A program made the translations under genes and the position numbers. The notes beneath the pieces are model-generated. The model saw only the letters and a program-made list of their open reading frames with translations. It searched no databases and was not told the DNA's origin. 64,000 nucleotides of DNA from a virus (lineage: Duplodnaviria; Heunggongvirae; Uroviricota; Caudoviricetes), in the IMG/VR virus record IMGVR_UViG_3300028048_000043; one strand, given 5' to 3'. This document shows positions 3,178 to 61,094 of this stretch, one piece after another; within the stretch, counting starts at the first letter, position 1; every line of letters begins with the position of its first letter.

Positions 3178-4333
3178 AAAGTTAAATTTGGTAATAGACT
3201 TCAATAATATGGCTATGAGGTCTATGTTTACTTGCCAATATATGGGAGAAGGATCCGTAAAGAATTTTGACACTGAAGAGGAATGCAAAATTCTTGTTAG
3301 AAAGCTTGCAACTGATATGTGCCAGATTATAAAGATGTTTTCACCGGACAGGGTTATTGTTGCATGTGATACAAAGTCTCCATGGAGAACAGGATTATAC
3401 AAAGATGTTGACTATAAAGGAACTAGAAAACATGACGAAGATAAGAACTGGACAAACATTTTCTCTGCTTTGACAGATTATAAAGAAATACTTAGAAAAA
3501 ATAATTTCATTGTAACAGAGATAGAAAACGCTGAGGCTGATGATTTGGCTGCGCTTTGGGTGCATGAATTATTTGGGAACCGCAACGAGTCTGTAATCCT
3601 TGTATCGTCTGATAAGGACTGGACTCAGTTGGTTGCGTTTGGAACGTGCGACGCGTTTGTAGCCTGTTATAACCCAATATCAAATAATAAAAACCAGAGA
3701 AAGTTTTATGTTGAATCTGGATTTGAAAACTGGATAAATTCCCCGGACACTGTTGATATCTTTTTCAGTAACTACGATGAGTTAAAAAAGAAACTCAAAG
3801 AGATTATGATGTCAAACACAAAAGTTTTCAAGGAGATAATAGATCCAAACAGAGTTCTAATAGATAAGATTCTGTGTGGAGATGATGGGGATAATGTTCC
3901 GTCGTTCTACGAGTATTATAAGAGTGGTAAAAAAGCTAGGCTAACTTCACTTAAAGCTAGTCATCTCATAGAAAATCTTTCTATCCATGGTGTTGGAGGT
4001 CTTAATGAATCTGCAAAGGTCGGAACGCTGAAGACAGAAATGGAAAAAGAAATGAAGGTCGAGATTCCTGTTGATTTTGAAGACAGACTTATGCGACAGC
4101 GCAAACTTGTCGAACTTAACAGAGACTTATTTCCTGGTTCAATAGTGGATAGTTTCGATATTCATTCAAAGTATATTGATTCCGCCGGAACAGTGTCCAG
4201 CAAAATCACAATGCAGGAATTATTGAAGGATACAAAATTTATTGATAAAAATTATAATAAACCGAGAGAAAACAGTATATTTGATGATGTAAACGCATTA
4301 AATAGGTTTTCTAAGGCACCTAGTTTATTTTGA
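3170..4333 (+). CDS. 5'-3' exonuclease / flap endonuclease (phage RNase H-like)
   Basis: N-terminal LVIDFNNMAMRSMF and VSSDKDWTQLV resemble PolI 5'-nuclease/FEN acidic motifs. Confidence 0.65.
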   Translation: MSRKLNLVIDFNNMAMRSMFTCQYMGEGSVKNFDTEEECKILVRKLATDMCQIIKMFSPDRVIVACDTKSPWRTGLYKDVDYKGTRKHDEDKNWTNIFSALTDYKEILRKNNFIVTEIENAEADDLAALWVHELFGNRNESVILVSSDKDWTQLVAFGTCDAFVACYNPISNNKNQRKFYVESGFENWINSPDTVDIFFSNYDELKKKLKEIMMSNTKVFKEIIDPNRVLIDKILCGDDGDNVPSFYEYYKSGKKARLTSLKASHLIENLSIHGVGGLNESAKVGTLKTEMEKEMKVEIPVDFEDRLMRQRKLVELNRDLFPGSIVDSFDIHSKYIDSAGTVSSKITMQELLKDTKFIDKNYNKPRENSIFDDVNALNRFSKAPSLF

Positions 4334-4899
4334 TGGCAAAGAAGAAAAATGAAATATCAGTTTCAAACGAGAGTATAGATTTGATAAGTGTCCTTTCTGG
4401 AACAGATGGATATAAAATTTCCCAGAAACCAGAAAAGGAGCAAACTGTCAAATCCGTACCTTATTTTGAAATATGCGACGCCGTGTTTAAAGGGAACAGA
4501 TATTATATAAACAACATGACGGATCAGCAGGCTAAACAGAACATATTTATGGTTCTGAGAAAAGTAGCCATAGGCTATCCAGAGATAGCCAACGCTTTCA
4601 ACAGACAAAATGTTAATGCGATGGATGTCATTAAATTTTTGTCTGTCTTGCTCCCTAGCAGAGGGTTTCCAAGTTGGTATTATACTAAAACGTCTCAAAA
4701 GAAAGAGATTGCATCTAAAAATGAAATTACAAAAAACGATATTACCGTATATATACAACACTATGGAATAACAAGAAAGGACTTTGAATCGGCTATGAGG
4801 ATATTTCCAGAAGAAACCATAAAAGATGTTATAGATTTAAGAAACTTTATTAAAAATTCAAATAGCACTAGAAATGAAAAAGACACTGATAACGAATGA
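4330..4899 (+). CDS. hypothetical protein
   Basis: 189-aa ORF, start overlaps upstream stop (ATGA). Confidence 0.45.
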   Translation: MMAKKKNEISVSNESIDLISVLSGTDGYKISQKPEKEQTVKSVPYFEICDAVFKGNRYYINNMTDQQAKQNIFMVLRKVAIGYPEIANAFNRQNVNAMDVIKFLSVLLPSRGFPSWYYTKTSQKKEIASKNEITKNDITVYIQHYGITRKDFESAMRIFPEETIKDVIDLRNFIKNSNSTRNEKDTDNE

Positions 4900-6873: not shown

Positions 6874-8775
6874 ATGAACAAAATTATCGGTATTGACCTC
6901 GGCAGCACAATGAGTGCTGTCGCGGTTGTTGAACAGGGGAAGCCACAAATTATTGTGAACAATGACGGAGACAGAACTACACCGTCCGTCATCGGGTACT
7001 CTAATGATGGAGAGGTAAAGGTTGGAAATTCAGCAAAGCGTTCAGCCGTTGTCAATCCAAAAACTACTATTGAGGTTATCAAAAGATTCATTGGTAATTC
7101 CTGGAAGAGATCCTCAAAATATGCAAAGGATTTTTCATATGATATTGTTGAGGGTCCAAATGACACAATTCGTGTAAAGATAAACGGAAAGGAATACACG
7201 CCTCAGGAAATTAGTGCAGAGGTTCTTCGCAAACTTAAAAAGTCAGCGGAAGACTATCTTGGTTCAGAAGTCAAGGAAGCCGTTATAACTGTACCGGCAT
7301 ATTTTGACGACCAGCAGAGAACAGCAACAGTTGAAGCTGCAAAAATAGCCGGACTTGAATGTAAGAGAATCATAAATGAGCCAACGGCGGCCGCTCTTGC
7401 ATTTGGTCTTGACAAACTTGACAAGGACATGAAGATTCTTGTTCTTGATTTGGGCGGAAGTACAGCTGATGTTTCAATCCTTGAATTGGGAAACGGTGTA
7501 TTTGAAGTGGTCAGTACAAACGGAGATATGATTCTTGGTGGTCGAGATCTCGATCAGTTAATTACGGATTGGATTGTCGACAAAATAAAAGAACAGTGCG
7601 GCGTCGATGTAAAGAAAGACCATATGGCATATCAGAGGGTTGTTGAGGCAGCAGAGAAGGCAAAAATAGAACTTTCTAATGTTACTTCAACAGACATCAA
7701 TCTTCCATATTTGACTGCTGTCGACGGAGTTCCTCAGCACTTTATGTCAAGTCTCACTCGCGCTCAATTCGAAAATCTTGCAGAGGGTTTCATTAAAAAG
7801 GTTGAAAATCTTTGTAAAGGTGCTTTGGAATCGGCAAAAATGAACATCAACGATATAGACGAAGTTCTTCTCGTTGGAGGAACAACAAGGGTTCCTAAAG
7901 TTCAGCAATTCGTTAGAGATTATTTTAAGAAGGAACCTAACAAATCCGTTAATCCGGATGAGGCTGTTGCTCTCGGAGCTGCAATTCAAGGTGCTATCCT
8001 TGCTGGAGATCTCGGAGACGATATTGTTCTTCTTGATGTCACTCCTCTAAACTTAAATATAACAACTCTCGGTGATGTTGCTACAACAATGATTGAAGCA
8101 AACACTACTATTCCTGTTTCGAAGGAACATATTTTCACAACAGCTGAAGATAACCAACCGGCAATAACCGTTGTCGTTACTCAGGGAAACAGAAAGATTG
8201 CAAGTGAGAATAAAAAGCTCGGAGAGTTTAATCTTGATGGAATAGCTCCTGCTAGAAGAGGTGTTCCGCAGATCAAAGTAAAATTTGATCTTGATACAAA
8301 TGGAATACTTAAAGTTACTGCAACCGACACGGCAACAGGAAAAGAACAGTTTATAAGAATAGAGGGGTCATCTAATCTTGATGATTCTGAAATCGACAGA
8401 ATGAGGAAAGATGCTGAGTTGCATGAAGCAGAAGATAAAGCAAGAGTTGAGAAGCAGAATAAACTTAACGACGCAGAATCTCTCATATTTGCCACAGAGC
8501 GTCAGTTATCTGACCAAGGAGACAAGATCTCCGACAATCTGAAGAAAGATATAGCAGAAAAATTAAATGCCTTAAAAGCTGTTTATAACGTTAAACCTGA
8601 GGATAGGGACATCGATGCTATTGAAAAGGCAACAAACGTTTTAAGAGAAGCTGTATACAAGGCTAGTGAGGAACTCTATAAATCTTCTTCAACTGATTCG
8701 TCTTCCGGACAGAATCCATTCTCGAATTTTGATTTCGCAAATGGTGGATTTCCTGGTGGAAATCCGACGAAATGA
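6874..8775 (+). CDS. dnaK: Hsp70 chaperone DnaK
   Basis: [40 protein letters not shown] signatures; 633 aa with GGFPGG C-terminus. Confidence 0.9.
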
Positions 8776-35456: not shown

Positions 35457-35891
35457 TCAATCTTTATAAGGGTTGTTTTCTTCAGTTACCTCAATTGCAA
35501 GATCATCGGATATCAAATCCAGATAATCAATATGAATAGAATCCAGATAATTGTATACCTCTTCCAATTCCTCAATCCATCTTCCGGAAGAAAGGAAGAA
35601 TTTTATACCGGTTACATCATTTATCTTTATCCAGTCATCATCGCGCCCTTCTTTATCGATATGAAGAATATCGAACATCCTGTCCATTTCATCTTCAGTC
35701 AAAGTGTGTATAGGACGAAGATATGGTTTACAATCTTCAATCGGTATTCCTCCGTTCAAGAAAACCATAGAATCGTTCTTCAATTGAACAATTTTAATAG
35801 AATGAAGCGTCTCTACAGAAGTGTAATAAAATTTCACTTTGTACGGCAATCTTCTTGCGAATTCTTTCAAAAGTTTGTTTTTCTTTTCCAT
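35457..35891 (-). CDS. hypothetical protein
   Basis: 144-aa ORF. Confidence 0.45.
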   Translation of the reverse strand: MEKKNKLLKEFARRLPYKVKFYYTSVETLHSIKIVQLKNDSMVFLNGGIPIEDCKPYLRPIHTLTEDEMDRMFDILHIDKEGRDDDWIKINDVTGIKFFLSSGRWIEELEEVYNYLDSIHIDYLDLISDDLAIEVTEENNPYKD

Positions 35892-35900
35892 ATCTACTGC

Positions 35901-36734
35901 TCAAAATTTGAACGCTTCCTTCATAAACCTTTCTCGATTTTCATCAAGAGTTAAATCAAATGCAGGAATAACTGTAAATTTCGATCGAGTGAAAGTTATA
36001 GGTGCATTAGACTGTGGAATAAGTCTACTCTCTGTTGTTTCTTTCTTATATACGAATCGACCGAACCTATACTGATCGGCGAACGCACACCAATCTACAC
36101 CAGATTTTGCTTTACATAGTTCAACTTGTTCATCTGTATTTCTACTCATAAGATCCTTAGGAGAAAGATATGTCTGAGCAGTCTGCTGCTTAGAGTTCCT
36201 GATGCAGTCGATTTGGCGGTACAGGAACCAAGCATACACGTCGTTTTTATTTGGAACGACCCAGACTTTACAGTCGAATTGGGCTAGTTTCATTTTATTG
36301 ATTTCGTCATACACTTCCGCAAACGTAACATCTACATCTCCGCTATCAACAAACTTGTTTGAAAGTTTATTCAGTATGAATTGTCTGTTGAATTCGCTGG
36401 TTGCTAACGAAGCTAAAATAGACTGAAGTTTGCACAATCTTCCACCAAATGGAGTGTCGGTTTCCTGTGTATCATAATCTGTTATGAGAAGACTTATCTC
36501 GTCGCTCTGCGTATATGCAAATTTAACTCCCTGAACGTTATTGCACAGGAATTTTGCCGTTTTGTTCATCATATCGATGAAATCATCATCGAACGGTTTT
36601 TTGAAATGATTCTTCACGAGCGTACTGAAGTTCTTTCCGTCAAGCATAACAAGAATGTTACTGTTCGGGAGAATCCTGTAATCAGTAAGATCTCTATAAT
36701 AATTACACTTTTCTTTGAGGTTTTTGAAATTCAT
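35901..36734 (-). CDS. Thg1-like protein (tRNA-His guanylyltransferase family 3'-5' nucleotidyltransferase)
   Basis: ILVMLDGKNFSTLVKNHFKKPFDDDF matches Thg1 VVVRLDGRNFHRF..KP.D; FAYTQSDEISLL matches metal-binding IAYGQSDEYSFV; KLQSILASLATSEF matches KFMTHVASQFASSY. Confidence 0.65.
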   Translation of the reverse strand: MNFKNLKEKCNYYRDLTDYRILPNSNILVMLDGKNFSTLVKNHFKKPFDDDFIDMMNKTAKFLCNNVQGVKFAYTQSDEISLLITDYDTQETDTPFGGRLCKLQSILASLATSEFNRQFILNKLSNKFVDSGDVDVTFAEVYDEINKMKLAQFDCKVWVVPNKNDVYAWFLYRQIDCIRNSKQQTAQTYLSPKDLMSRNTDEQVELCKAKSGVDWCAFADQYRFGRFVYKKETTESRLIPQSNAPITFTRSKFTVIPAFDLTLDENRERFMKEAFKF

Positions 36735-37859: not shown

Positions 37860-38708
37860 TTAGTCTGTTCTTACAAGAAGTTTTCTATCTTTATTGTTTT
37901 TAAACATCATAGTTTGATAACATTTTGCACAATTAGGTATAAATGCGTTATAGAACTTCATGTTAAATTCCTTGAATCTCTTGTCGAATCCGCCATCAAG
38001 ATAATCAGATATGTTTGCATATTGAAGCACTCCCATATCACATTTGTATATGTCACCATCCTCATCAATAAGGAATGTATATAAAGACTCTGGTTTCTGA
38101 CAGTAACACCCAAAGAAACTATAAATCCCGTTAGATGAAAACGCGCTTCTTCCAATCGGTACTATTCCACTTTCACTTAAATAGTTTATATCAGGAATGT
38201 TATATTTTGCACCCATCTTTTCAAGAAGTTCTCCAGCTTTATCCACATTTTTATTTGTGTGCCATTTATCCCTTGAAATCGATATGTTTATTTTATCTCC
38301 ACAGTTTATGACGAGTCGCTGAAGTTTTGCTTGAACAGAAATATTGTTAGCCCAGTCTCCATTGCTGACAATTCTTGCGTGTTTACAGGAATCTATAAGA
38401 ATTGTAAATATTTCATACCAGTCAGGGTTACAGAAAAATTCTCCTCCCATAAGGTTAATACTTACGACGTCGTTGTTTTTGATGAATTGAGCAATCTCCT
38501 TTGCCCTGTCTATGCTCATCATTATTTTGCTTTCTGGAGACGAATTGAAGCAGCAATGGGAACATTTTTGTGTACATTTATTCGTTATCCTTATTGTCCA
38601 ATGAAGAAACCGCATGCACTCGTTTGCTAATTTACAAGTGTTGCAGTTACAGTCGTGTTTTCCTTTACAAGTTTCCTCTACACAAATGTTGCAAGGAGGT
38701 TTTCTCAT
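37860..38708 (-). CDS. radical SAM enzyme with N-terminal Cys-rich extension and C-terminal twitch/SPASM-like motif (paralog 1)
   Basis: CTQKCSHC (Cx3Cx2C), NLMGGEFF (GGE motif), C-x14-G-x4-C then CAKC at C-terminus; N-terminal CNICVEETCKGKHDCNCNTCKLANEC. Confidence 0.7.
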   Translation of the reverse strand: MRKPPCNICVEETCKGKHDCNCNTCKLANECMRFLHWTIRITNKCTQKCSHCCFNSSPESKIMMSIDRAKEIAQFIKNNDVVSINLMGGEFFCNPDWYEIFTILIDSCKHARIVSNGDWANNISVQAKLQRLVINCGDKINISISRDKWHTNKNVDKAGELLEKMGAKYNIPDINYLSESGIVPIGRSAFSSNGIYSFFGCYCQKPESLYTFLIDEDGDIYKCDMGVLQYANISDYLDGGFDKRFKEFNMKFYNAFIPNCAKCYQTMMFKNNKDRKLLVRTD

Positions 38709-47582: not shown

Positions 47583-47733
47583 TTATACCACACAAATAAA
47601 CCACTAATAAAATTGTAAATATTCCAATATGAACAATTATATCCTGTTGTATACTATATCTCGGAAGGATAAAATATATTGCAAGTCCATAGATGATAAT
47701 ACCTATAAAAAACAATATGTCTCTTCTAATCAT
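47524..47733 (-). CDS. small membrane protein immediately downstream of rSAM paralog 2
   Basis: 69 aa, 2 TM helices, overlaps rSAM stop. Confidence 0.4.
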   Translation of the reverse strand: MIRRDILFFIGIIIYGLAIYFILPRYSIQQDIIVHIGIFTILLVVYLCGIIVLELISKKISDWNCKKLF

Positions 47734-48565
47734 AATCTACTATAAATTCAGGTTTCTGTGATGATATAAAGTTATAACAGGATTGACAAGATGAGATGAA
47801 TACAGAATAGAATTTACTGTTTGTTTCTTTGAACTTCTGTCTGAATCCTCCTTCAAGATATTCATCAACATGTGCATAACACAGGACACCGAATGAACAC
47901 TTGAAAATATTTCCTTTTTCATCAATAAGGAAAGAATACTTATTTTTAGGATTCTGACAGTAACATCCCATCATATCATAAAGTCCACTGATGTACTTAC
48001 CATTTGCCCTACCAACAGGGACAATAGACTGATCGGTTGTCTGATCTTCTGTTGCCACTTTGACAATCGCCCCTATATCTTCAAGGAATGCCTTTGCAGC
48101 ATCCACATTCTTGTTTGTATGCCACTTGTCCTTTGATATACAGAAGTAAATCTGCTTATTGAACAGTGATACCAATGTCATCAGCTGGGTCTTTACTTTC
48201 ATATTGTTCACCCAGTCACCATTTGTCACCAGTCTGGCATATTTTACAGATGAGATGAGGGCACTATATATCTCAAACCAGTCGGGATTGCAGAAGAACT
48301 CTCCACCCATAAGGTTGATACTCTCTATGTCATTACTTTTCAAGAACTTTGCAATTTCTTTTGCTTTCTCCACAGTCATCATAATGTTTGACTTTGGAGA
48401 AGACATAAAGCAACAGTGACCGCACTCCTGGGTACATCTGTTGGTGATTCTGATAGTTGCATGAAGTTTTCTGTAACACTTATCTTTCAGTTGACAAGCA
48501 TCACAATGACAATTATGAGCGCCTTTGCAGGTTTCTTCTAAACATATATCACAAGGACTTGACAT
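47726..48565 (-). CDS. radical SAM enzyme with N-terminal Cys-rich extension and C-terminal twitch/SPASM-like motif (paralog 2)
   Basis: CTQECGHC, NLMGGEFF, GCYCQ...C-x-G-x4-C, about 50% identity to 37860-38708 across full length. Confidence 0.7.
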   Translation of the reverse strand: MSSPCDICLEETCKGAHNCHCDACQLKDKCYRKLHATIRITNRCTQECGHCCFMSSPKSNIMMTVEKAKEIAKFLKSNDIESINLMGGEFFCNPDWFEIYSALISSVKYARLVTNGDWVNNMKVKTQLMTLVSLFNKQIYFCISKDKWHTNKNVDAAKAFLEDIGAIVKVATEDQTTDQSIVPVGRANGKYISGLYDMMGCYCQNPKNKYSFLIDEKGNIFKCSFGVLCYAHVDEYLEGGFRQKFKETNSKFYSVFISSCQSCYNFISSQKPEFIVDYD

Positions 48566-49880: not shown

Positions 49881-50558
49881 CTATTCAAGTTTTTTACATT
49901 CTTCTTCAGTATACATAGAATGGAGTTTTTCAATCCACCACTTGGTCTTGATTTTAACAGAAGGTCTCCTCTGTCCCTTGAGTAAAGTTGATCTCTTGAA
50001 CACAACACCTTCCTTTACTTTTGAGTTCCAGCAATCGGGTTGAGTCCAGTCATTTCCCTGGATCTTTGAAATGATGTCTGCGTCAAGTACACCTGAATAA
50101 ATCAAATCAGGCATCTCAATCCCAGAATTCCTGAAACACATTTCATAGTTCTTTGGTTCAATATAACCTTTCTTCTTCAGGAATACATCAATGAGTGCAA
50201 GATGCATTTCATCTCCATCCTGGTGTTTACCGGCGAAAGAATTCCAACCATACCACTCAGATACAAATGTCACTTCATCAACACCAGTAAAGACATCTCC
50301 CTTTCCGGAATAGTCTTTTACAATCTTTGCAATTATTTCAGGATAATTGGAATTTTTGAACCACTTGACCACCTGTCCAAACTGTTCAGAATTCTCATCA
50401 ACAGTGACTGTCCTGGATCCAAATGGTCCCCAGGTTTTCTTTCTGCAATTATAGGATGCAACAAAATTCTGGCCATCAAGTTTATTATACCCGACAACCA
50501 TTTCACCTTTCAAAGAACCATCATCCTGGATTCTTGGTATGGAATCATAATGTTTCAT
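49881..50558 (-). CDS. minimal Rnl2-like RNA/DNA ligase nucleotidyltransferase domain
   Basis: motif I GYNKLDGQNF (KxDGxN, cf. T4 Rnl2 KIHGTNF), motif IV EGVVFK, motif V KIKTKWW. Confidence 0.55.
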   Translation of the reverse strand: MKHYDSIPRIQDDGSLKGEMVVGYNKLDGQNFVASYNCRKKTWGPFGSRTVTVDENSEQFGQVVKWFKNSNYPEIIAKIVKDYSGKGDVFTGVDEVTFVSEWYGWNSFAGKHQDGDEMHLALIDVFLKKKGYIEPKNYEMCFRNSGIEMPDLIYSGVLDADIISKIQGNDWTQPDCWNSKVKEGVVFKRSTLLKGQRRPSVKIKTKWWIEKLHSMYTEEECKKLE

Positions 50559-55420: not shown

Positions 55421-55831
55421 TTACAGTTTCTTAAGACAACAAACCAGACCGTATTCCATCGCATTCTCGAATCTCGGAAAAATCTCTTTCTCTATGGTCT
55501 TACCGTTATAAACGGCACCGTCGTCTTCGAGAGCCTGGATCCATTCGCTTCCGTTGTTTTTATAGAACGAAAGATAAAACCCAGTGCTGTTCGGATCGGG
55601 TCTGACATCTATGTATATCCCGAAGATTTCCGTCAGCCATGTCAACGCCCCCTGCTGCGTAGGAGCGTGAAGCATCTTCCCGTCATCGAACTTATCCCAA
55701 TGAAAAAACCTCTCGAAACACCATTCGCCGTCAGATTCATAATAATAGTATATGTAATCCGTATCGGAATCAAACCCTTTCTCTTTTAAGAGTTTGGCCG
55801 TTTTAAAACTAACGTGATTTTCGGTAATCAT
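55421..55831 (-). CDS. MITEDYVSF-family paralog A
   Basis: MITENHVSFKTAKLLKEKGFD ... EYGLVCCLKKL; GC-richer than other copies. Confidence 0.55.
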   Translation of the reverse strand: MITENHVSFKTAKLLKEKGFDSDTDYIYYYYESDGEWCFERFFHWDKFDDGKMLHAPTQQGALTWLTEIFGIYIDVRPDPNSTGFYLSFYKNNGSEWIQALEDDGAVYNGKTIEKEIFPRFENAMEYGLVCCLKKL

Positions 55832-55834
55832 ATT

Positions 55835-56185
55835 CTAAATCAATTTTTTAAGACAAAATTTGATAACAGCTTCAGCAGCATCTTCAAAAGAATGATATGC
55901 CATGTCGCTCTCTATTTTCTCACCACGATAAAGGATTATATATTGATAATAGTCCCAAAAAGTATTATAGTGTACTTCAACGTGCAAATTATGAACTTTC
56001 CTCAACCACTTCATTGTCATTTGAAGAGTTGGGTCGGAATATCGACGTCCAATATTCCAATTCCAATCAGCCTCCTTTCTATTAAACTTTCCTTCATTGT
56101 CATAAAACGAAGATACATACACATCAAACCCTTTCTCTTTCAGGAGCTTAGCCGTACCAAAGCTAACATAATCATCTGTAATCAT
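55835..56185 (-). CDS. MITEDYVSF-family paralog B
   Basis: MITDDYVSFGTAKLLKEKGFD ... PTLQMTMKWLRK ... AEAVIKFCLKKLI. Confidence 0.55.
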   Translation of the reverse strand: MITDDYVSFGTAKLLKEKGFDVYVSSFYDNEGKFNRKEADWNWNIGRRYSDPTLQMTMKWLRKVHNLHVEVHYNTFWDYYQYIILYRGEKIESDMAYHSFEDAAEAVIKFCLKKLI

Positions 56186-56268
56186 ATTGTTTTTTCCTCA
56201 AACATTTTTATATGCCTTGATTTAATACCAAAAAAGCGATCAACACTCCTTCCAAGTTCATTCCATTT

Positions 56269-56346
56269 TTAATTGAAGAAGAAAAAGAACGGCAGTCCTA
56301 CAATGCAAATAATCGTAACCACAATGTAATAAACTACTTTTTTCAT
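56269..56346 (-). CDS. 25-aa hydrophobic micro-peptide
   Basis: MKKVVYYIVVTIICIVGLPFFFFFN; speculative. Confidence 0.25.
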   Translation of the reverse strand: MKKVVYYIVVTIICIVGLPFFFFFN

Positions 56347-56351
56347 ATCTT

Positions 56352-56624
56352 TTATATTACGGTGAACATTGTATTAGACCAATAAAACACATCTCTGTCT
56401 TCTTTTATATGATAGATGTAATTATCACATGGTTTGGGGTAGTTAGATGTGAATACATTTCCATGTTTATCCATATGCCCTATGTAAGAAATGGTTACTT
56501 CTTTTCCACCAAACTTGTCTATCATTTCTTGTGTTAAACCAAATAGGTGTTTATATTTTGTTTCATGACCAATCACTCTTACTTTCTGCCCCACTTGGAA
56601 CATTGCATCATTTATCTTTTCCAT
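56352..56624 (-). CDS. hypothetical protein
   Basis: 90-aa ORF. Confidence 0.4.
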   Translation of the reverse strand: MEKINDAMFQVGQKVRVIGHETKYKHLFGLTQEMIDKFGGKEVTISYIGHMDKHGNVFTSNYPKPCDNYIYHIKEDRDVFYWSNTMFTVI

Positions 56625-56629
56625 AGTCC

Positions 56630-56989
56630 CTAGATCAATTTTTCAAGACAATATTTTATTGTCGATTCGCAGGCTTCTTCGAATGAATCAAACCCATTTC
56701 CACCAATTTTATTTTTATCTGATTCAACCTTAATGTCTTTACTATTACAAATAAATTGAACAGTTGGCATATAGTTTTTTGAACCGATACAGTCTACCAT
56801 TATATGAAGATTATGCTGATTTCTCAACCACTTCATTGCTGTTTGAAGAGTTGGTGCATATACACCATCAGGTGACTCCTGATCATAATCAGGTTCAGGA
56901 TAAAACCTATTTGATTCACAATTCCAGTCAAACCCCTTTTCTTTAAGAAGCTCTGCAATTTCAAGACTAACGTAATCTTCAGTAATCAT
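56630..56989 (-). CDS. MITEDYVSF-family paralog C
   Basis: MITEDYVSLEIAELLKEKGFD ... PTLQTAMKWLRN ... EACESTIKYCLEKLI. Confidence 0.55.
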   Translation of the reverse strand: MITEDYVSLEIAELLKEKGFDWNCESNRFYPEPDYDQESPDGVYAPTLQTAMKWLRNQHNLHIMVDCIGSKNYMPTVQFICNSKDIKVESDKNKIGGNGFDSFEEACESTIKYCLEKLI

Positions 56990-56992
56990 AAT

Positions 56993-57298
56993 CTATTTTT
57001 CTACATCAAACAACATATCTTCTGTAACGTCATATCCTCCATCCAAGTCCACACATTCAATATCAAAAGGATTTTCACACTCTTTGATTCTCTGGATAAA
57101 CATCTGCTTCAGCTCATCTATCCTATCCTTTGTGAAATACTTTTCCGTCACCAATGATGCCTGATTGTCTATGTCATTAGCATCATCAGGAAACGGCTTG
57201 GTATATACAGTTATATCATCATCTATCAAATGAGGCTTAAGAGCACATACGAATTTAAAGACATCGTTATCTACATATTTTTTACAATCCTTTTTCAT
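56993..57298 (-). CDS. hypothetical acidic protein
   Basis: 101-aa ORF; preceded by decayed paralog N-terminus. Confidence 0.4.
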   Translation of the reverse strand: MKKDCKKYVDNDVFKFVCALKPHLIDDDITVYTKPFPDDANDIDNQASLVTEKYFTKDRIDELKQMFIQRIKECENPFDIECVDLDGGYDVTEDMLFDVEK

Positions 57299-57402
57299 AT
57301 CCTATAAAAAATTTTTGCCAAATCATATAAGCAAGCACACGTTTCATTAACCCATTTCAAGAGTTTTGCGGTTTAAAAGCTAACACAATATTCAGTCATC
57401 AT
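57299..57402 (-). pseudogene. decayed N-terminal remnant of a MITEDYVSF-family gene
   Basis: minus strand reads MMTEYCVSF*TAKLLKWVNE (cf. MITEDYVSFETAKLLKEKGFDE) with in-frame stop. Confidence 0.45.
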
Positions 57403-57776
57403 ATCAAATTTTCAAGGCAATATTTTATTGCTGCTTCACACGCCCCCTCTTGATTTTCATAAACCCATCCTTGAGAATAAACATCATTGTGTTTTGCAAC
57501 AACGATTTCAACCTTCCACAAAAACTTCTCTTTATCGAGTACACTACTCAGGACAGGTATAACAGCAATACCTTTCTTTTCCCTCAACCACTTCATTGCC
57601 ATTTGAATAGTTGGTGCTAGGATAGCATTATGCATTTCACATCCAGATGCTTCAACCTCATATTTTTCATAACTAAAAGAACCAGCGCTCCCATAATGAG
57701 CTCTACATCCTTCATCAAACCCCTTTTCCTTAAGGAGTTTTGCTGTTTCGAAGCTTACGTAATCTTCTGTTATCAT
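57399..57776 (-). CDS. MITEDYVSF-family paralog D
   Basis: start placed at MITEDY (57776) rather than the upstream Met at 57800 given by the ORF track; PTIQMAMKWLREK ... CEAAIKYCLENLI. Confidence 0.55.
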   Translation of the reverse strand: MITEDYVSFETAKLLKEKGFDEGCRAHYGSAGSFSYEKYEVEASGCEMHNAILAPTIQMAMKWLREKKGIAVIPVLSSVLDKEKFLWKVEIVVAKHNDVYSQGWVYENQEGACEAAIKYCLENLI

Positions 57777-57777
57777 A

Positions 57778-58032
57778 TTACTGTTTGTTTTTATGTTCAT
57801 ACCAAATGTAACGGAGTCTTGCTAATATACTGCGTTCGTGTAATGATCCGCATAATGGGCACTTGCAATATTTGCGAGGAGAAACGTACGAGAAAAAATC
57901 GTTAGGATAATCGGCAACAAAAGTTGTTTTGCTATAATTAAATCCATTTTCTTCCTTTTTACAAGTCTTACATACAAACATGTATTTTTTACTCTTTGTC
58001 TTTTTTGGTGGAACGGTTTTTACTATTTCCAT
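57778..58032 (-). CDS. Zn-ribbon small protein
   Basis: CKTCKK ... CKCPLCG. Confidence 0.4.
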   Translation of the reverse strand: MEIVKTVPPKKTKSKKYMFVCKTCKKEENGFNYSKTTFVADYPNDFFSYVSPRKYCKCPLCGSLHERSILARLRYIWYEHKNKQ

Positions 58033-58047
58033 AATCTAAATCAAATT

Positions 58048-58290
58048 TTAAAGATATATTCCAAAAGGGCTCCATCCATAAGGAAGAATCATATATTCTT
58101 CTGGATTCTTGTGCGAGTCTTCTGTTACCTTCAACCAAATCTCCCTCTCTTTTTGTGCTTTAAGGAATTTTGCATTATCTTTAATCCTGCGTTTCTTTAA
58201 AGCTTCATTCCGACGGATTTTTTCGTTTTCTTCTTGTATATCGACAATTGCTGTTGCTATATCGACAATTAAACTAAATGAATTAAACAT
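58048..58290 (-). CDS. hypothetical protein
   Basis: 80-aa ORF, basic. Confidence 0.35.
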   Translation of the reverse strand: MFNSFSLIVDIATAIVDIQEENEKIRRNEALKKRRIKDNAKFLKAQKEREIWLKVTEDSHKNPEEYMILPYGWSPFGIYL

Positions 58291-58716
58291 CTAGATCAAA
58301 TTTTCAAGACAGTACTTTATTGCTGCTTCACAAGCTTGTTCATAAGTCTTGTAAATAGCATCAGACTCATCTTTGATCAAACTGCATCCTTTGGAATGAT
58401 ATTCAATCCTGTACCACCAATCATTACTTTCTTGAATTGCGTCATGGAATGGATAGATTTCAAGATAAAAAGTATTCCTCAACCACTTCATAGCCATTTG
58501 AAGAGTTGGTGTGGAACAGTAAACAATGTGCCCATATGGTTTATTTTCTAATTCACTATTAGTTAGCATTAAATTAGCAGATATAAATAATTCTTCCTCA
58601 TCTACTATTTTATTGTTGACTAATTTTTTTCTATAAGAGCATTGGCATTTCTCATCAAACCCCTTTTCTTTCAGGAGTTTTGCAACTTCAAAAGAAACGT
58701 AATCTTCCGTAATCAT
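58291..58716 (-). CDS. MITEDYVSF-family paralog E
   Basis: MITEDYVSFEVAKLLKEKGFDE ... PTLQMAMKWLRN ... EQACEAAIKYCLENLI. Confidence 0.55.
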   Translation of the reverse strand: MITEDYVSFEVAKLLKEKGFDEKCQCSYRKKLVNNKIVDEEELFISANLMLTNSELENKPYGHIVYCSTPTLQMAMKWLRNTFYLEIYPFHDAIQESNDWWYRIEYHSKGCSLIKDESDAIYKTYEQACEAAIKYCLENLI

Positions 58717-58718
58717 AA

Positions 58719-58940
58719 CTAATCGTTTTTACATTTTGCTAACAAAGCCCTGATTGCCTTGTAAAGGCGCCTTATAAATTTAACTGGGAACAAAATTGCC
58801 CAGAAGGAAATGATGAGGACAAACATATTTTTATCATCCTCCGACATATCTGGAGGAGTCGGAATATTATGGATTGCACAATAGATACAGGCAAAAACAA
58901 ACCCAATTACTAAATAAAGTAAGATTAGTAAAATTACCAT
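58719..58940 (-). CDS. small membrane protein
   Basis: 73 aa, 2 TM helices. Confidence 0.4.
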   Translation of the reverse strand: MVILLILLYLVIGFVFACIYCAIHNIPTPPDMSEDDKNMFVLIISFWAILFPVKFIRRLYKAIRALLAKCKND

Positions 58941-58943
58941 ATT

Positions 58944-59351
58944 TTAAATCAAATTTTCAAGACAATATTTTATAGCAACTTCGCAGGCTTCTTCATAAGT
59001 GTTAAAATTTTTTGGAAAACCGTTTTTGTGAGCTAATGGATTTAGTTCTTCAATAGTTGCTGCTTTATGTATGAGAGAATTTCCTGATTTAGTTTCAAGA
59101 ACATATACATAATAGCGAGGATGATATATTTCAGGATTTTCAGAAAATGTTAAATTTACTTCAATATATAGGTTATATTTCTCCCTCAACCACTTCATTG
59201 CCATTTGAAGAGTTGGAGCAACTGGTCCATAACAATATCCACTACATAAATCTCCCTGTGTGTTATACTGCTTATGGCAACCAAATTGTTCAAACCCCTT
59301 CTCTTTCAAGAGTAGTGCCGTTTCAAAGCTAACATAATCTTCCGTAATCAT
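58944..59351 (-). CDS. MITEDYVSF-family paralog F
   Basis: MITEDYVSFETALLLKEKGFEQ ... PTLQMAMKWLREK ... EEACEVAIKYCLENLI. Confidence 0.55.
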   Translation of the reverse strand: MITEDYVSFETALLLKEKGFEQFGCHKQYNTQGDLCSGYCYGPVAPTLQMAMKWLREKYNLYIEVNLTFSENPEIYHPRYYVYVLETKSGNSLIHKAATIEELNPLAHKNGFPKNFNTYEEACEVAIKYCLENLI

Positions 59352-59362
59352 AACAATTTTTA

Positions 59363-59554
59363 CTAGCAGTTAATTCTTATAGCATATCCTTTGCTGACAT
59401 ATTCTTCAAACTGTTCCTGTGTAACATCAGCATCTTCCCATGTGACGGGGTATCCTGACGGGGTTGATAAATCATCGCCTTCTCTTAAACACCTTCTATC
59501 ATGTTCATGCATCATTTTCGCCCAAGAGTAATCCTTGCTAAATTTAATTTTCAT
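59363..59554 (-). CDS. hypothetical protein
   Basis: 63-aa ORF. Confidence 0.35.
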   Translation of the reverse strand: MKIKFSKDYSWAKMMHEHDRRCLREGDDLSTPSGYPVTWEDADVTQEQFEEYVSKGYAIRINC

Positions 59555-59556
59555 AA

Positions 59557-60027
59557 CTAAATCAAATTTTCAAGACAATACTTAATGGCTGCTTCGCATG
59601 CTTTTTCATAAGGAATGTGTTCGGCTTCATGCCTTTTCCACCTATCTGTAAAAATGGTTGTTTTAACAGCCCACCCATAATGCCACTCTAAATCCTCATT
59701 GGAATCTCCTGTGCAAATTGGGTTAAGTTCTATATGAATGTTATGTTTCTCTCTCAACCACTTCATTGCCGCCCACAATGTTGGAGCCGCCCACACTTTA
59801 CCGTCTTCATCACTATTGCTACAGTTAAAATAGTATAATGCACCACCCTCTACATACTCAATTTCATTCTCCATGCCTTCATCTTTAAGATCACATTCTT
59901 CATCGAAGCTGATATTCTCTCCATTATGAAGTACAGCAACACCGTAGCAGCACCGACACCATTCCTTAAACCCTTTTTCTTTTAAGAGTTTTGCCGTTTC
60001 AAAACTAACGTAGTCTTCGGTAATCAT
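59557..60027 (-). CDS. MITEDYVSF-family paralog G
   Basis: MITEDYVSFETAKLLKEKGFKE ... PTLWAAMKWLREK ... EKACEAAIKYCLENLI. Confidence 0.55.
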   Translation of the reverse strand: MITEDYVSFETAKLLKEKGFKEWCRCCYGVAVLHNGENISFDEECDLKDEGMENEIEYVEGGALYYFNCSNSDEDGKVWAAPTLWAAMKWLREKHNIHIELNPICTGDSNEDLEWHYGWAVKTTIFTDRWKRHEAEHIPYEKACEAAIKYCLENLI

Positions 60028-60810: not shown

Positions 60811-61053
60811 TCATTTCTCAAACCATCTTGGCTCATCAAACCCCATTTCTATATAGACAGAGTCCTCTCCACATTTGTAGTCTGTGGCAACCATTTCTAT
60901 CTTCGCGTTGGCAACCCTGCTTCCCTGAAGCATACACACATGCACATCACAGTCGTGCCCAATGTCATCCCTGATTTCTTGGAGGCGTTCAATAAGCCCG
61001 TCAAGCGTCATTAGTTTATTAGTCGCCATATTCACATCTTGTTTACGATGCAA
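60811..61053 (-). CDS. hypothetical protein
   Basis: 80-aa ORF. Confidence 0.35.
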   Translation of the reverse strand: MHRKQDVNMATNKLMTLDGLIERLQEIRDDIGHDCDVHVCMLQGSRVANAKIEMVATDYKCGEDSVYIEMGFDEPRWFEK

Positions 61054-61094
61054 AGATAAGAAATATAAATCAAAAATCCAAATTTATTTCAATC

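Follow-up and report, generated by a model that had tools for sequence, protein, structure and literature searches.

Mosaic paralogues of the phage family phrog_12005 in a seven-gene tandem array: three conserved blocks and two independently exchanged variable segments

In phage receptor-binding and tail-fibre genes, as in polymorphic toxin/immunity cassettes, conserved segments flank interchangeable cassettes and recombinants break within the conserved segments. A comparable layout is found at positions 55421-60027 of a 64,000-nucleotide stretch of the Caudoviricetes record IMGVR_UViG_3300028048_000043 (the whole stretch is referred to below as the window), where seven small minus-strand genes form a tandem array. 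The array differs from the known mosaics in that its exchanged units are sub-domain elements of about 25-60 residues within a single 125-residue cytoplasmic domain, its conserved segments are kept as protein rather than as DNA identity, and it has no toxin, trafficking or virion domain. It is a lineage-specific tandem expansion of one phage-restricted family, phrog_12005. Our main reading, to which we assign a probability of about 0.45, is that the products are modular soluble binders in which the constant part would serve a common function and the variable parts different targets, most plausibly host factors or defences.

A preliminary description of this DNA, made from the letters alone, reported seven intact paralogues of 116-156 amino acids (aa), and the listing of open reading frames (ORFs) agrees exactly with all seven of its coordinate pairs. 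A profile hidden Markov model (HMM) built from the family was applied to all stop-to-stop fragments of the window and gave exactly seven matches (E-values of 1e-27 to 1e-54); no further copy was found in the window, the next-best fragment having an E-value of about 5. The copies and the remnant of an eighth are as follows.

Copy 1: 55421..55831, minus strand; 136 aa, the most divergent paralogue; family HMM E-value 1.3e-27, phrog_12005 E-value 3e-12.
Copy 2: 55835..56185, minus strand; 116 aa, the shortest; family HMM E-value 6.7e-39.
Copy 3: 56630..56989, minus strand; 119 aa; family HMM E-value 9.5e-35.
Copy 4: 57399..57776, minus strand; 125 aa, consensus-like; family HMM E-value 9.6e-49; identical to the database protein P0003.
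Copy 5: 58291..58716, minus strand; 141 aa; family HMM E-value 1.4e-54.
Copy 6: 58944..59351, minus strand; 135 aa, with the longest second variable segment (63 aa); family HMM E-value 4.6e-34.
Copy 7: 59557..60027, minus strand; 156 aa, with the longest first variable segment (61 aa); family HMM E-value 1.2e-44.
Decayed eighth copy: 57300..57401, minus strand; N-terminal fragment, identified from DNA repeat family D2 and by reading the sequence.

The start of copy 4 is placed at 57776, which is consistent with the family and with the tight gene spacing; an alternative in-frame ATG lies upstream at 57800. The decayed copy, which had already been reported, is real: from 57401 to 57300 it reads MMTEYCVSF, an in-frame stop and TAKLLKWVNETCACLYD..., the part after the stop beginning TAKLLK, and it is truncated. 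The family HMM matches weakly at 57298-57372.

Each copy was divided into an N block (20 aa), a first variable segment (V1), a mid block (11 aa), a second variable segment (V2) and a C block (15-16 aa). The mean pairwise protein identity among the seven copies, with a shuffled partner as the baseline, is 0.86 in the N block (shuffled, 0.18), 0.76 in the mid block (0.18) and 0.67 in the C block (0.24); it is 0.16 in V1 (0.14) and 0.19 in V2 (0.16). V1 (25-61 aa) and V2 (38-63 aa) are therefore at the level of shuffled sequence, which bears out the earlier statement that the segments between the blocks differ completely, and a check for conservation in these middles was negative. No V1 type and no V2 type occurs twice among the window's seven copies, so that the set of cassette types in the array is non-redundant. 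Invariant in the seven-protein alignment are M1, I2, T3, V7, S8, A12, L14-F20, P57, T58, W65, L66 and the C-terminal pattern E..A.E....CL..L. The motifs that had been quoted as uniform do mark three conserved blocks, but copies 1-3 and 7 deviate from them: the variants are MITENHVSFKTAKLLKEKGF, PTQQGALTWLTE and NAMEYGLVCCLKKL in copy 1, the C-terminal end DAAEAVIKFCLKKLI in copy 2 and PTLWAAMKWLRE in copy 7.

The DNA of the conserved ends had been described as near-identical, which was an overstatement, as the block DNA is 67-83% identical. Synonymous differences among the paralogues in the blocks (pS of 0.49-0.66) are near saturation, against non-synonymous differences (pN) of 0.09-0.20 and an omega of 0.04-0.3 for most pairs. 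The paralogues are therefore old, and the blocks are held by purifying selection on the protein rather than by recent duplication or gene conversion. The pS values rule out recent gene conversion as the source of block conservation, and the level of block DNA identity, together with the high synonymous divergence, likewise led us to reject repeats produced by recent tandem duplication or gene conversion.

V1 and V2 are exchanged independently across phages, with breakpoints within the conserved blocks. When 121 family proteins were split at the blocks and cassette types were defined at 60% identity, 76 V1 types and 28 V2 types were obtained. Fifteen V1 types are each paired with more than one V2 type, and the V1 type of copy 2 is elsewhere paired with at least five other V2 types. 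Proteins from other phages combine the types of different array copies.

P0010: V1 of the copy 5 type, V2 of the copy 3 type.
P0032: V1 of the copy 7 type, V2 of the copy 4 type.
P0059: V1 of the copy 7 type, V2 of the copy 2 type.
P0026: V1 of the copy 2 type, V2 of the copy 4 type.

The V1 types of copies 2 and 7 are thus each seen with the V2 types of copies 2 and 4, a four-gamete configuration that requires recombination. In a DNA crossover map of P0010, nucleotides 60-240 of the gene are 96-100% identical to copy 5 and nucleotides 210-390 are 86-96% identical to copy 3, while the N block is just 63-83% identical to copy 5; these shifts in identity place the breakpoints in the N block and the mid block. 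The V1 type and the V2 type of copy 3 occur in two separate genes of a related locus, L007. In several gene pairs from IMG/VR the shared cassette has a pS of 0-0.2 compared with 0.4-0.6 in the blocks of the same genes, and cassettes have therefore been transferred recently into diverged scaffolds. The cassette-like layout proposed in the preliminary description is accordingly correct, and stronger than could be seen at that stage: the blocks fall on the predicted scaffold helices and the segments between them swap between phages. A diversity-generating retroelement was considered for this window and rejected, as a blastn comparison of the array with the rest of the 64 kb revealed no template-like repeat and the cassettes vary in length and throughout their sequence instead of at adenine-templated sites. 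On the related phage contig L090, an IS1595-family DDE transposase (3623-4567, minus strand) lies approximately 1.4 kb from the recombinant gene P0010.

The array had also been likened to families under diversifying selection, which the substitution rates do not support. For pairs of genes that share a cassette type (50-98% identity), the pooled Nei-Gojobori ratio of non-synonymous to synonymous substitution (dN/dS) is 0.18 for V1 and 0.17 for V2, values that are crude because they are pooled and dS is near saturation, and 0.04-0.05 for the blocks of the same pairs. This is the range of purifying selection; a dN/dS above 1, as in families under positive selection, was not found in the variable parts. 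It follows that each cassette type is functional and constrained, and the diversity of the cassettes consists of many old discrete types and their recombination rather than of fast point substitution.

A dN/dS that never rises above 1 would also suit a reading with no target diversity, in which the helices are a folding core or have a single shared function, the β segments tolerate almost any sequence and the copies are redundant duplicates. The hypervariability of the neighbouring genes, the decay of one array copy and the presence of other multi-copy small families in the same regions agree with this reading. We nevertheless consider it quite unlikely, given that the cassettes are under purifying selection within types, that many phages retain the same cassette types, which recur in new combinations, that the V regions are predicted to be ordered and that seven intact copies have been kept despite saturated synonymous sites.

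Copies 4 and 7 were modelled with AlphaFold2 using the family alignment. The confidence scores (predicted local distance difference test, pLDDT; predicted template-modelling score, pTM) and the helices (H) and strands (E) are as follows.

Copy 4 model: pLDDT 92, pTM 0.86; H9-17, E24-28, E34-41, H43-48, H57-68, E70-80, E84-93, E98-101, H109-124.
Copy 7 model: pLDDT 87, pTM 0.79; the element order of copy 4, with a longer V1 hairpin (E23-34, H41-49, E56-70).

Each protein is predicted to be one compact domain in the order α0, β-hairpin (V1), α1, three β-strands (V2), α2. In the models the three conserved blocks correspond to three long helices, V1 to a β-hairpin insert and V2 to a three-stranded sheet, and the V regions of both copies are modelled with high confidence as ordered strands. 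The family proteins are acidic (median isoelectric point, pI, of 4.9; net charge of -1 to -15), and no signal peptide or transmembrane segment is visible in their sequences. Comparison with solved structures gave no significant match, the best being to the T7 dGTPase inhibitor Gp1.2 (Foldseek against the PDB; E-value of 0.04); the structural matches to Gp1.2, AcrIF4 and AcrIF5 are non-significant and cover about half of the family protein. None of these three is known as a tandem mosaic multigene family. Below an E-value of 1e-3, a structure search of BFVD gave three phage proteins, all uncharacterised, and no other match.

The C-terminal half of the models has an α-β-β-β-α topology like that of the double-stranded RNA-binding domain (dsRBD), and the fold recalls in particular degenerate, protein-binding dsRBDs such as Staufen dsRBD5 and DRB4. 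The likeness is one of topology: the family shows neither sequence similarity nor a match to the Pfam model dsrm, and it lacks the basic RNA-contact residues and basic surface of dsRBDs. It is instead acidic, has an additional N-terminal helix and hairpin, and conserves its helices rather than its loops. RNA-binding dsRBDs have a lysine-rich motif at the start of helix 2, and the equivalent helix here, α2, starts with YEEACEAA. Together with the acidic character of the proteins, this makes dsRBD-style RNA binding unlikely.

The same observations bear on a wider proposal, that the proteins are nucleic acid-binding regulators in which the C-terminal unit is a true dsRBD or the N-terminal helix is part of a helix-turn-helix (HTH), with RNA or DNA specificity set in each paralogue by the variable parts. 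The AKLLKEKGF helix does have a weak local match to the RpoN box (E-value of 0.6), RNA-repair genes (Thg1-like and RNA ligase) occur elsewhere in the window, and RNA-related genes adjoin the homologues in cr106_1 and Cellulophaga phage phi4:1. Given the charge of the proteins, the sequence at the start of α2, the lack of a Pfam dsrm or HTH match and the non-significant structural matches, we regard this proposal as very unlikely.

Sequence searches place the array firmly within a single family. All seven copies match phrog_12005, for which no function is recorded, with E-values of 1.4e-9 to 1.3e-14; six of the seven align over approximately positions 2-127 of the 137 in the profile, the best stretch for copy 6 being 58-94, and there are weaker matches to phrog_25117. 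No other catalogued family has the seven copies as members. Its entry describes no function, structure, two-cassette mosaic or tandem expansion, and a search of the literature on phrog_12005, jumbo-phage paralogue families and families with conserved termini found no description of it. Scans of all copies gave nothing in Pfam at an E-value of 1 or below except two chance-level matches to domains of unknown function, a single match in NCBIfam (DarG, to one copy, E-value of 0.026), nothing in PADLOC and a best E-value of 0.37 in a profile search of PDB sequences. The possibility raised at the outset, that the family is a well-known single-copy structural domain, is therefore not borne out by the profile searches. 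In profile searches of 5.8 billion proteins, the matches listed (at least 8,000) are all unnamed or 'hypothetical protein' and have no Pfam domain. Neither sequence nor structure searches link the family to any characterised protein.

The family is large. When 1.84 billion representatives were searched exhaustively with HMMER, 15,950 clusters at 50% identity had E-values of 1e-3 or below, 4,837 of them at 1e-10 or below. In IMG/VR, over 518 sites were confirmed, the longest of their contigs measuring 411 kb; copy number ranges from one to seven per 20 kb locus, and several contigs carry copies at two or three distant places. Among 185,579 species, each represented by one genome, just eight family loci were found, all of them on contigs of metagenome-assembled genomes (MAGs) from rumen, sheep colon, chicken gut and similar sources; the family is therefore essentially phage-restricted. 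Five of the eight MAG bins are labelled Bacteroidota (Bacteroidales, Bacteroidaceae, Prevotella and Candidatus Gallipaludibacter), two Erysipelotrichaceae and one Candidatus Kapaibacterium. The bin labels, together with a promoter motif described below, indicate that the family is nearly confined to phages of Bacteroidota-type hosts. Three metagenomic proteins (P0121, P0122 and P0214; 262-295 aa) consist of two fused family domains, that is, of neighbouring copies joined in frame, and some relatives bear unannotated N-terminal extensions; no known domain was found in the extensions or the fusions.

A megablast search of the array against 50,697 phage records gave no match, and tblastn found distant members only in the crAss-like phage cr106_1 and in phages of the Cellulophaga phage phi4:1 type, all annotated as hypothetical. 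Next to the distant homologue in cr106_1 (L080) are tRNAs, a transfer-messenger RNA (tmRNA) and a TROVE-domain gene. The homologue in phi4:1 (L081) adjoins a tRNA nucleotidyltransferase, a ligase and a gene with PF00644 that is annotated 'polymerase'. We take PF00644 to be the PARP catalytic domain. An association of the distant homologues with RNA-related genes is possible but weak. Residues A12, L14, K16, K18, G19, F20, P55, T56, W63, E110, A112, E114 and L121 are invariant even in four distant relatives.

Five of these residues, K16, K18, T56, E110 and E114, are polar and are retained from rumen jumbo phages to the crAss-like and marine Cellulophaga phage relatives, as might be expected of an active or ligand site. 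The family would then be a small enzyme or ligand-binding domain in which V1 and V2 tune the choice of substrate. However, no similarity to any enzyme family was detected in the Pfam, NCBIfam, PDB and structure searches, and the domain is very small and has no evident pocket-forming motif, so that such a role seems decidedly improbable.

In the window the array is part of an accessory region of small minus-strand genes, closely packed over a long distance, and the family copies alternate with other small genes for which Pfam and PHROG gave no informative match. As first reported, these genes are unrelated to the family; the ORF listing and the Pfam and PHROG scans show that they are also unrelated to one another.

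56352..56624, minus strand: 90 aa; weak phrog_17705 match only, no homologue in 88 related loci.
56993..57298, minus strand: acidic protein of 101 aa (pI 4.35); one homologue, in L007, where the gene order is different.
57778..58032, minus strand: basic, Cys-rich, zinc ribbon-like protein of 84 aa (pI 9.6); 90% identical homologue in L005, at another position relative to the family copies.
58048..58290, minus strand: 80 aa, unrelated.
58719..58940, minus strand: small hydrophobic protein of 73 aa, resembling a protein with two transmembrane segments.
59363..59554, minus strand: 63 aa, unrelated.

Between copy 2 and the 90-residue gene is a gap of 166 nucleotides (56186-56351, minus strand) with a hydrophobic mini-ORF of 25 codons (MKKVVYYIVVTIICIVGLPFFFFFN), too short for inclusion in the ORF listing.

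The neighbours matter to the possibility that the family consists of immunity or antidote proteins, acting in phage-phage or phage-host toxin conflicts or in superinfection exclusion, with one cassette type for each toxin variant. The many discrete, recombining types on a constant scaffold resemble polymorphic immunity families, one genome carries a non-redundant set of types, and the copies alternate in tight coupling with unrelated small genes. However, the neighbours of family members are hyperdiverse, 194 ORFs falling into 128 clusters, and the interspersed genes of the window are mostly unique, with almost no homologues in the 88 related loci and a different gene order where they are present. 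No consistent, co-varying adjacent partner was found. A fixed partner gene, as in toxin-antitoxin-like pairing, is thus ruled out, which argues against pairing of the toxin-immunity type. PADLOC and NCBIfam likewise assign no copy to a known anti-phage defence or toxin-antitoxin system, apart from the single DarG match already mentioned, and we give an immunity or antidote role rather low odds.

Two other multi-copy families of small proteins are found in related loci, and neither is detectably homologous to the phrog_12005 family. One (MTQEEKQLLLKDLCARLPYGV ... PYLRPMSSMTEEE ... VDWLNAHHFDYRGLI) is expanded beside it in L022, L025, L008 and others, with 118 matches in related loci and up to 12 per 20 kb, and appears to combine conserved motifs with variable stretches; its single copy in the window lies at 35457-35891 on the minus strand (E-value of 1e-18). 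The other (MATIKSFTDLEQSKVLAKILP..ESAD ... PCWSLAALL ... DACVEMI) has 46 matches, in L037, L054, L052, L004 and others, and none in the window; judged by eye, its layout is like that of the phrog_12005 family, but hhalign lends homology no support (probability below 1%). Homology was likewise rejected for a neighbouring 'MATIKSFTDLEQSK...' family that looks similar by eye (hhalign probability below 1%).

The window belongs to a contig of approximately 314 kb (ENA ERZ27252073 k141_717600, also at JGI). Its size and the genes of the window point to a jumbo phage; the source is a gut or rumen community of Bacteroidales type. The GC content of the window is approximately 35%, and no tRNA genes were found in it. 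Sigma-70-like promoters and terminators within 54.5-62.5 kb are not above chance. The window also encodes a clamp-loader-like AAA protein, an exonuclease and a WDGH-domain protein, and contains the following features.

61051..61085, minus strand: candidate promoter of Bacteroidota type (TTTG ... TAtcTTTG), lying upstream of the tightly packed minus-strand genes among which the array falls; motif only.
6874-8775, plus strand: full-length Hsp70/DnaK homologue (PF00012, E-value of 2e-220).
35901-36734, 49881-50558, 37860-38708 and 47726-48565, all minus strand: Thg1-like tRNA-His guanylyltransferase, RNA ligase and two radical SAM proteins.

The four genes in the last of these entries suggest an RNA-repair or modification toolkit.

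Taking the array and its relatives together, we favour the reading of the proteins as soluble, acidic, two-sided binding modules, a view of constant and variable faces that is deduced from the order of secondary-structure elements rather than from computed surfaces. The constant helical part would have a function common to all members, perhaps self-association or the binding of one shared partner from phage or host, and the variable β elements would specify different targets. The role would lie in host takeover or in neutralising variable host defences or host factors, with each phage holding a non-redundant repertoire that is renewed through cassette exchange. The anti-defence decoy, host-factor binder and immunity-like roles first suggested from the sequence are plausible candidates. 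Several points weigh against the binder reading. No positive selection was detected in V1 or V2 by the crude, pooled dN/dS with its near-saturated dS, and the conserved helices might serve mainly in folding. In addition, the 120 sequences in the alignment were picked by profile score, which inflates block conservation; the controls for this bias, just six scan-independent copies and the four distant relatives, are partial.

A more specific and somewhat doubtful version of the binder reading is that the family forms a combinatorial repertoire in phages of Bacteroidota hosts, in which the scaffold couples to one shared partner or effector and V1 and V2 set the specificity. Tandem arrays would then be non-redundant sets, recombination in the blocks would shuffle cassettes between phages, and the repertoire would track variable host defences or surface-independent host factors. 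If true, the family would parallel, at the protein level, the cassette-based diversification of antigens or receptors, here within a cytoplasmic domain of 125 residues.

With about 16,000 clusters and neither a Pfam model nor a named relative, phrog_12005 ranks among the larger phage protein families that lack any characterisation. Jumbo, crAss-like and marine phages of Bacteroidota-type hosts all carry members, and phages of such hosts are dominant in gut and rumen viromes. The confident predicted fold, the extreme conservation of three helices and the documented shuffling of two cassettes make it an unusually tractable candidate; it is also a natural scaffold whose two specificity segments can be exchanged. 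Should the variable parts have no specific targets, the family still shows how sub-domain mosaicism inflates apparent protein diversity in metagenomes. The family could also reveal mechanisms of phage-host interaction and possibly counter-defence proteins, which would lead in turn to new defence systems of the Bacteroidales.

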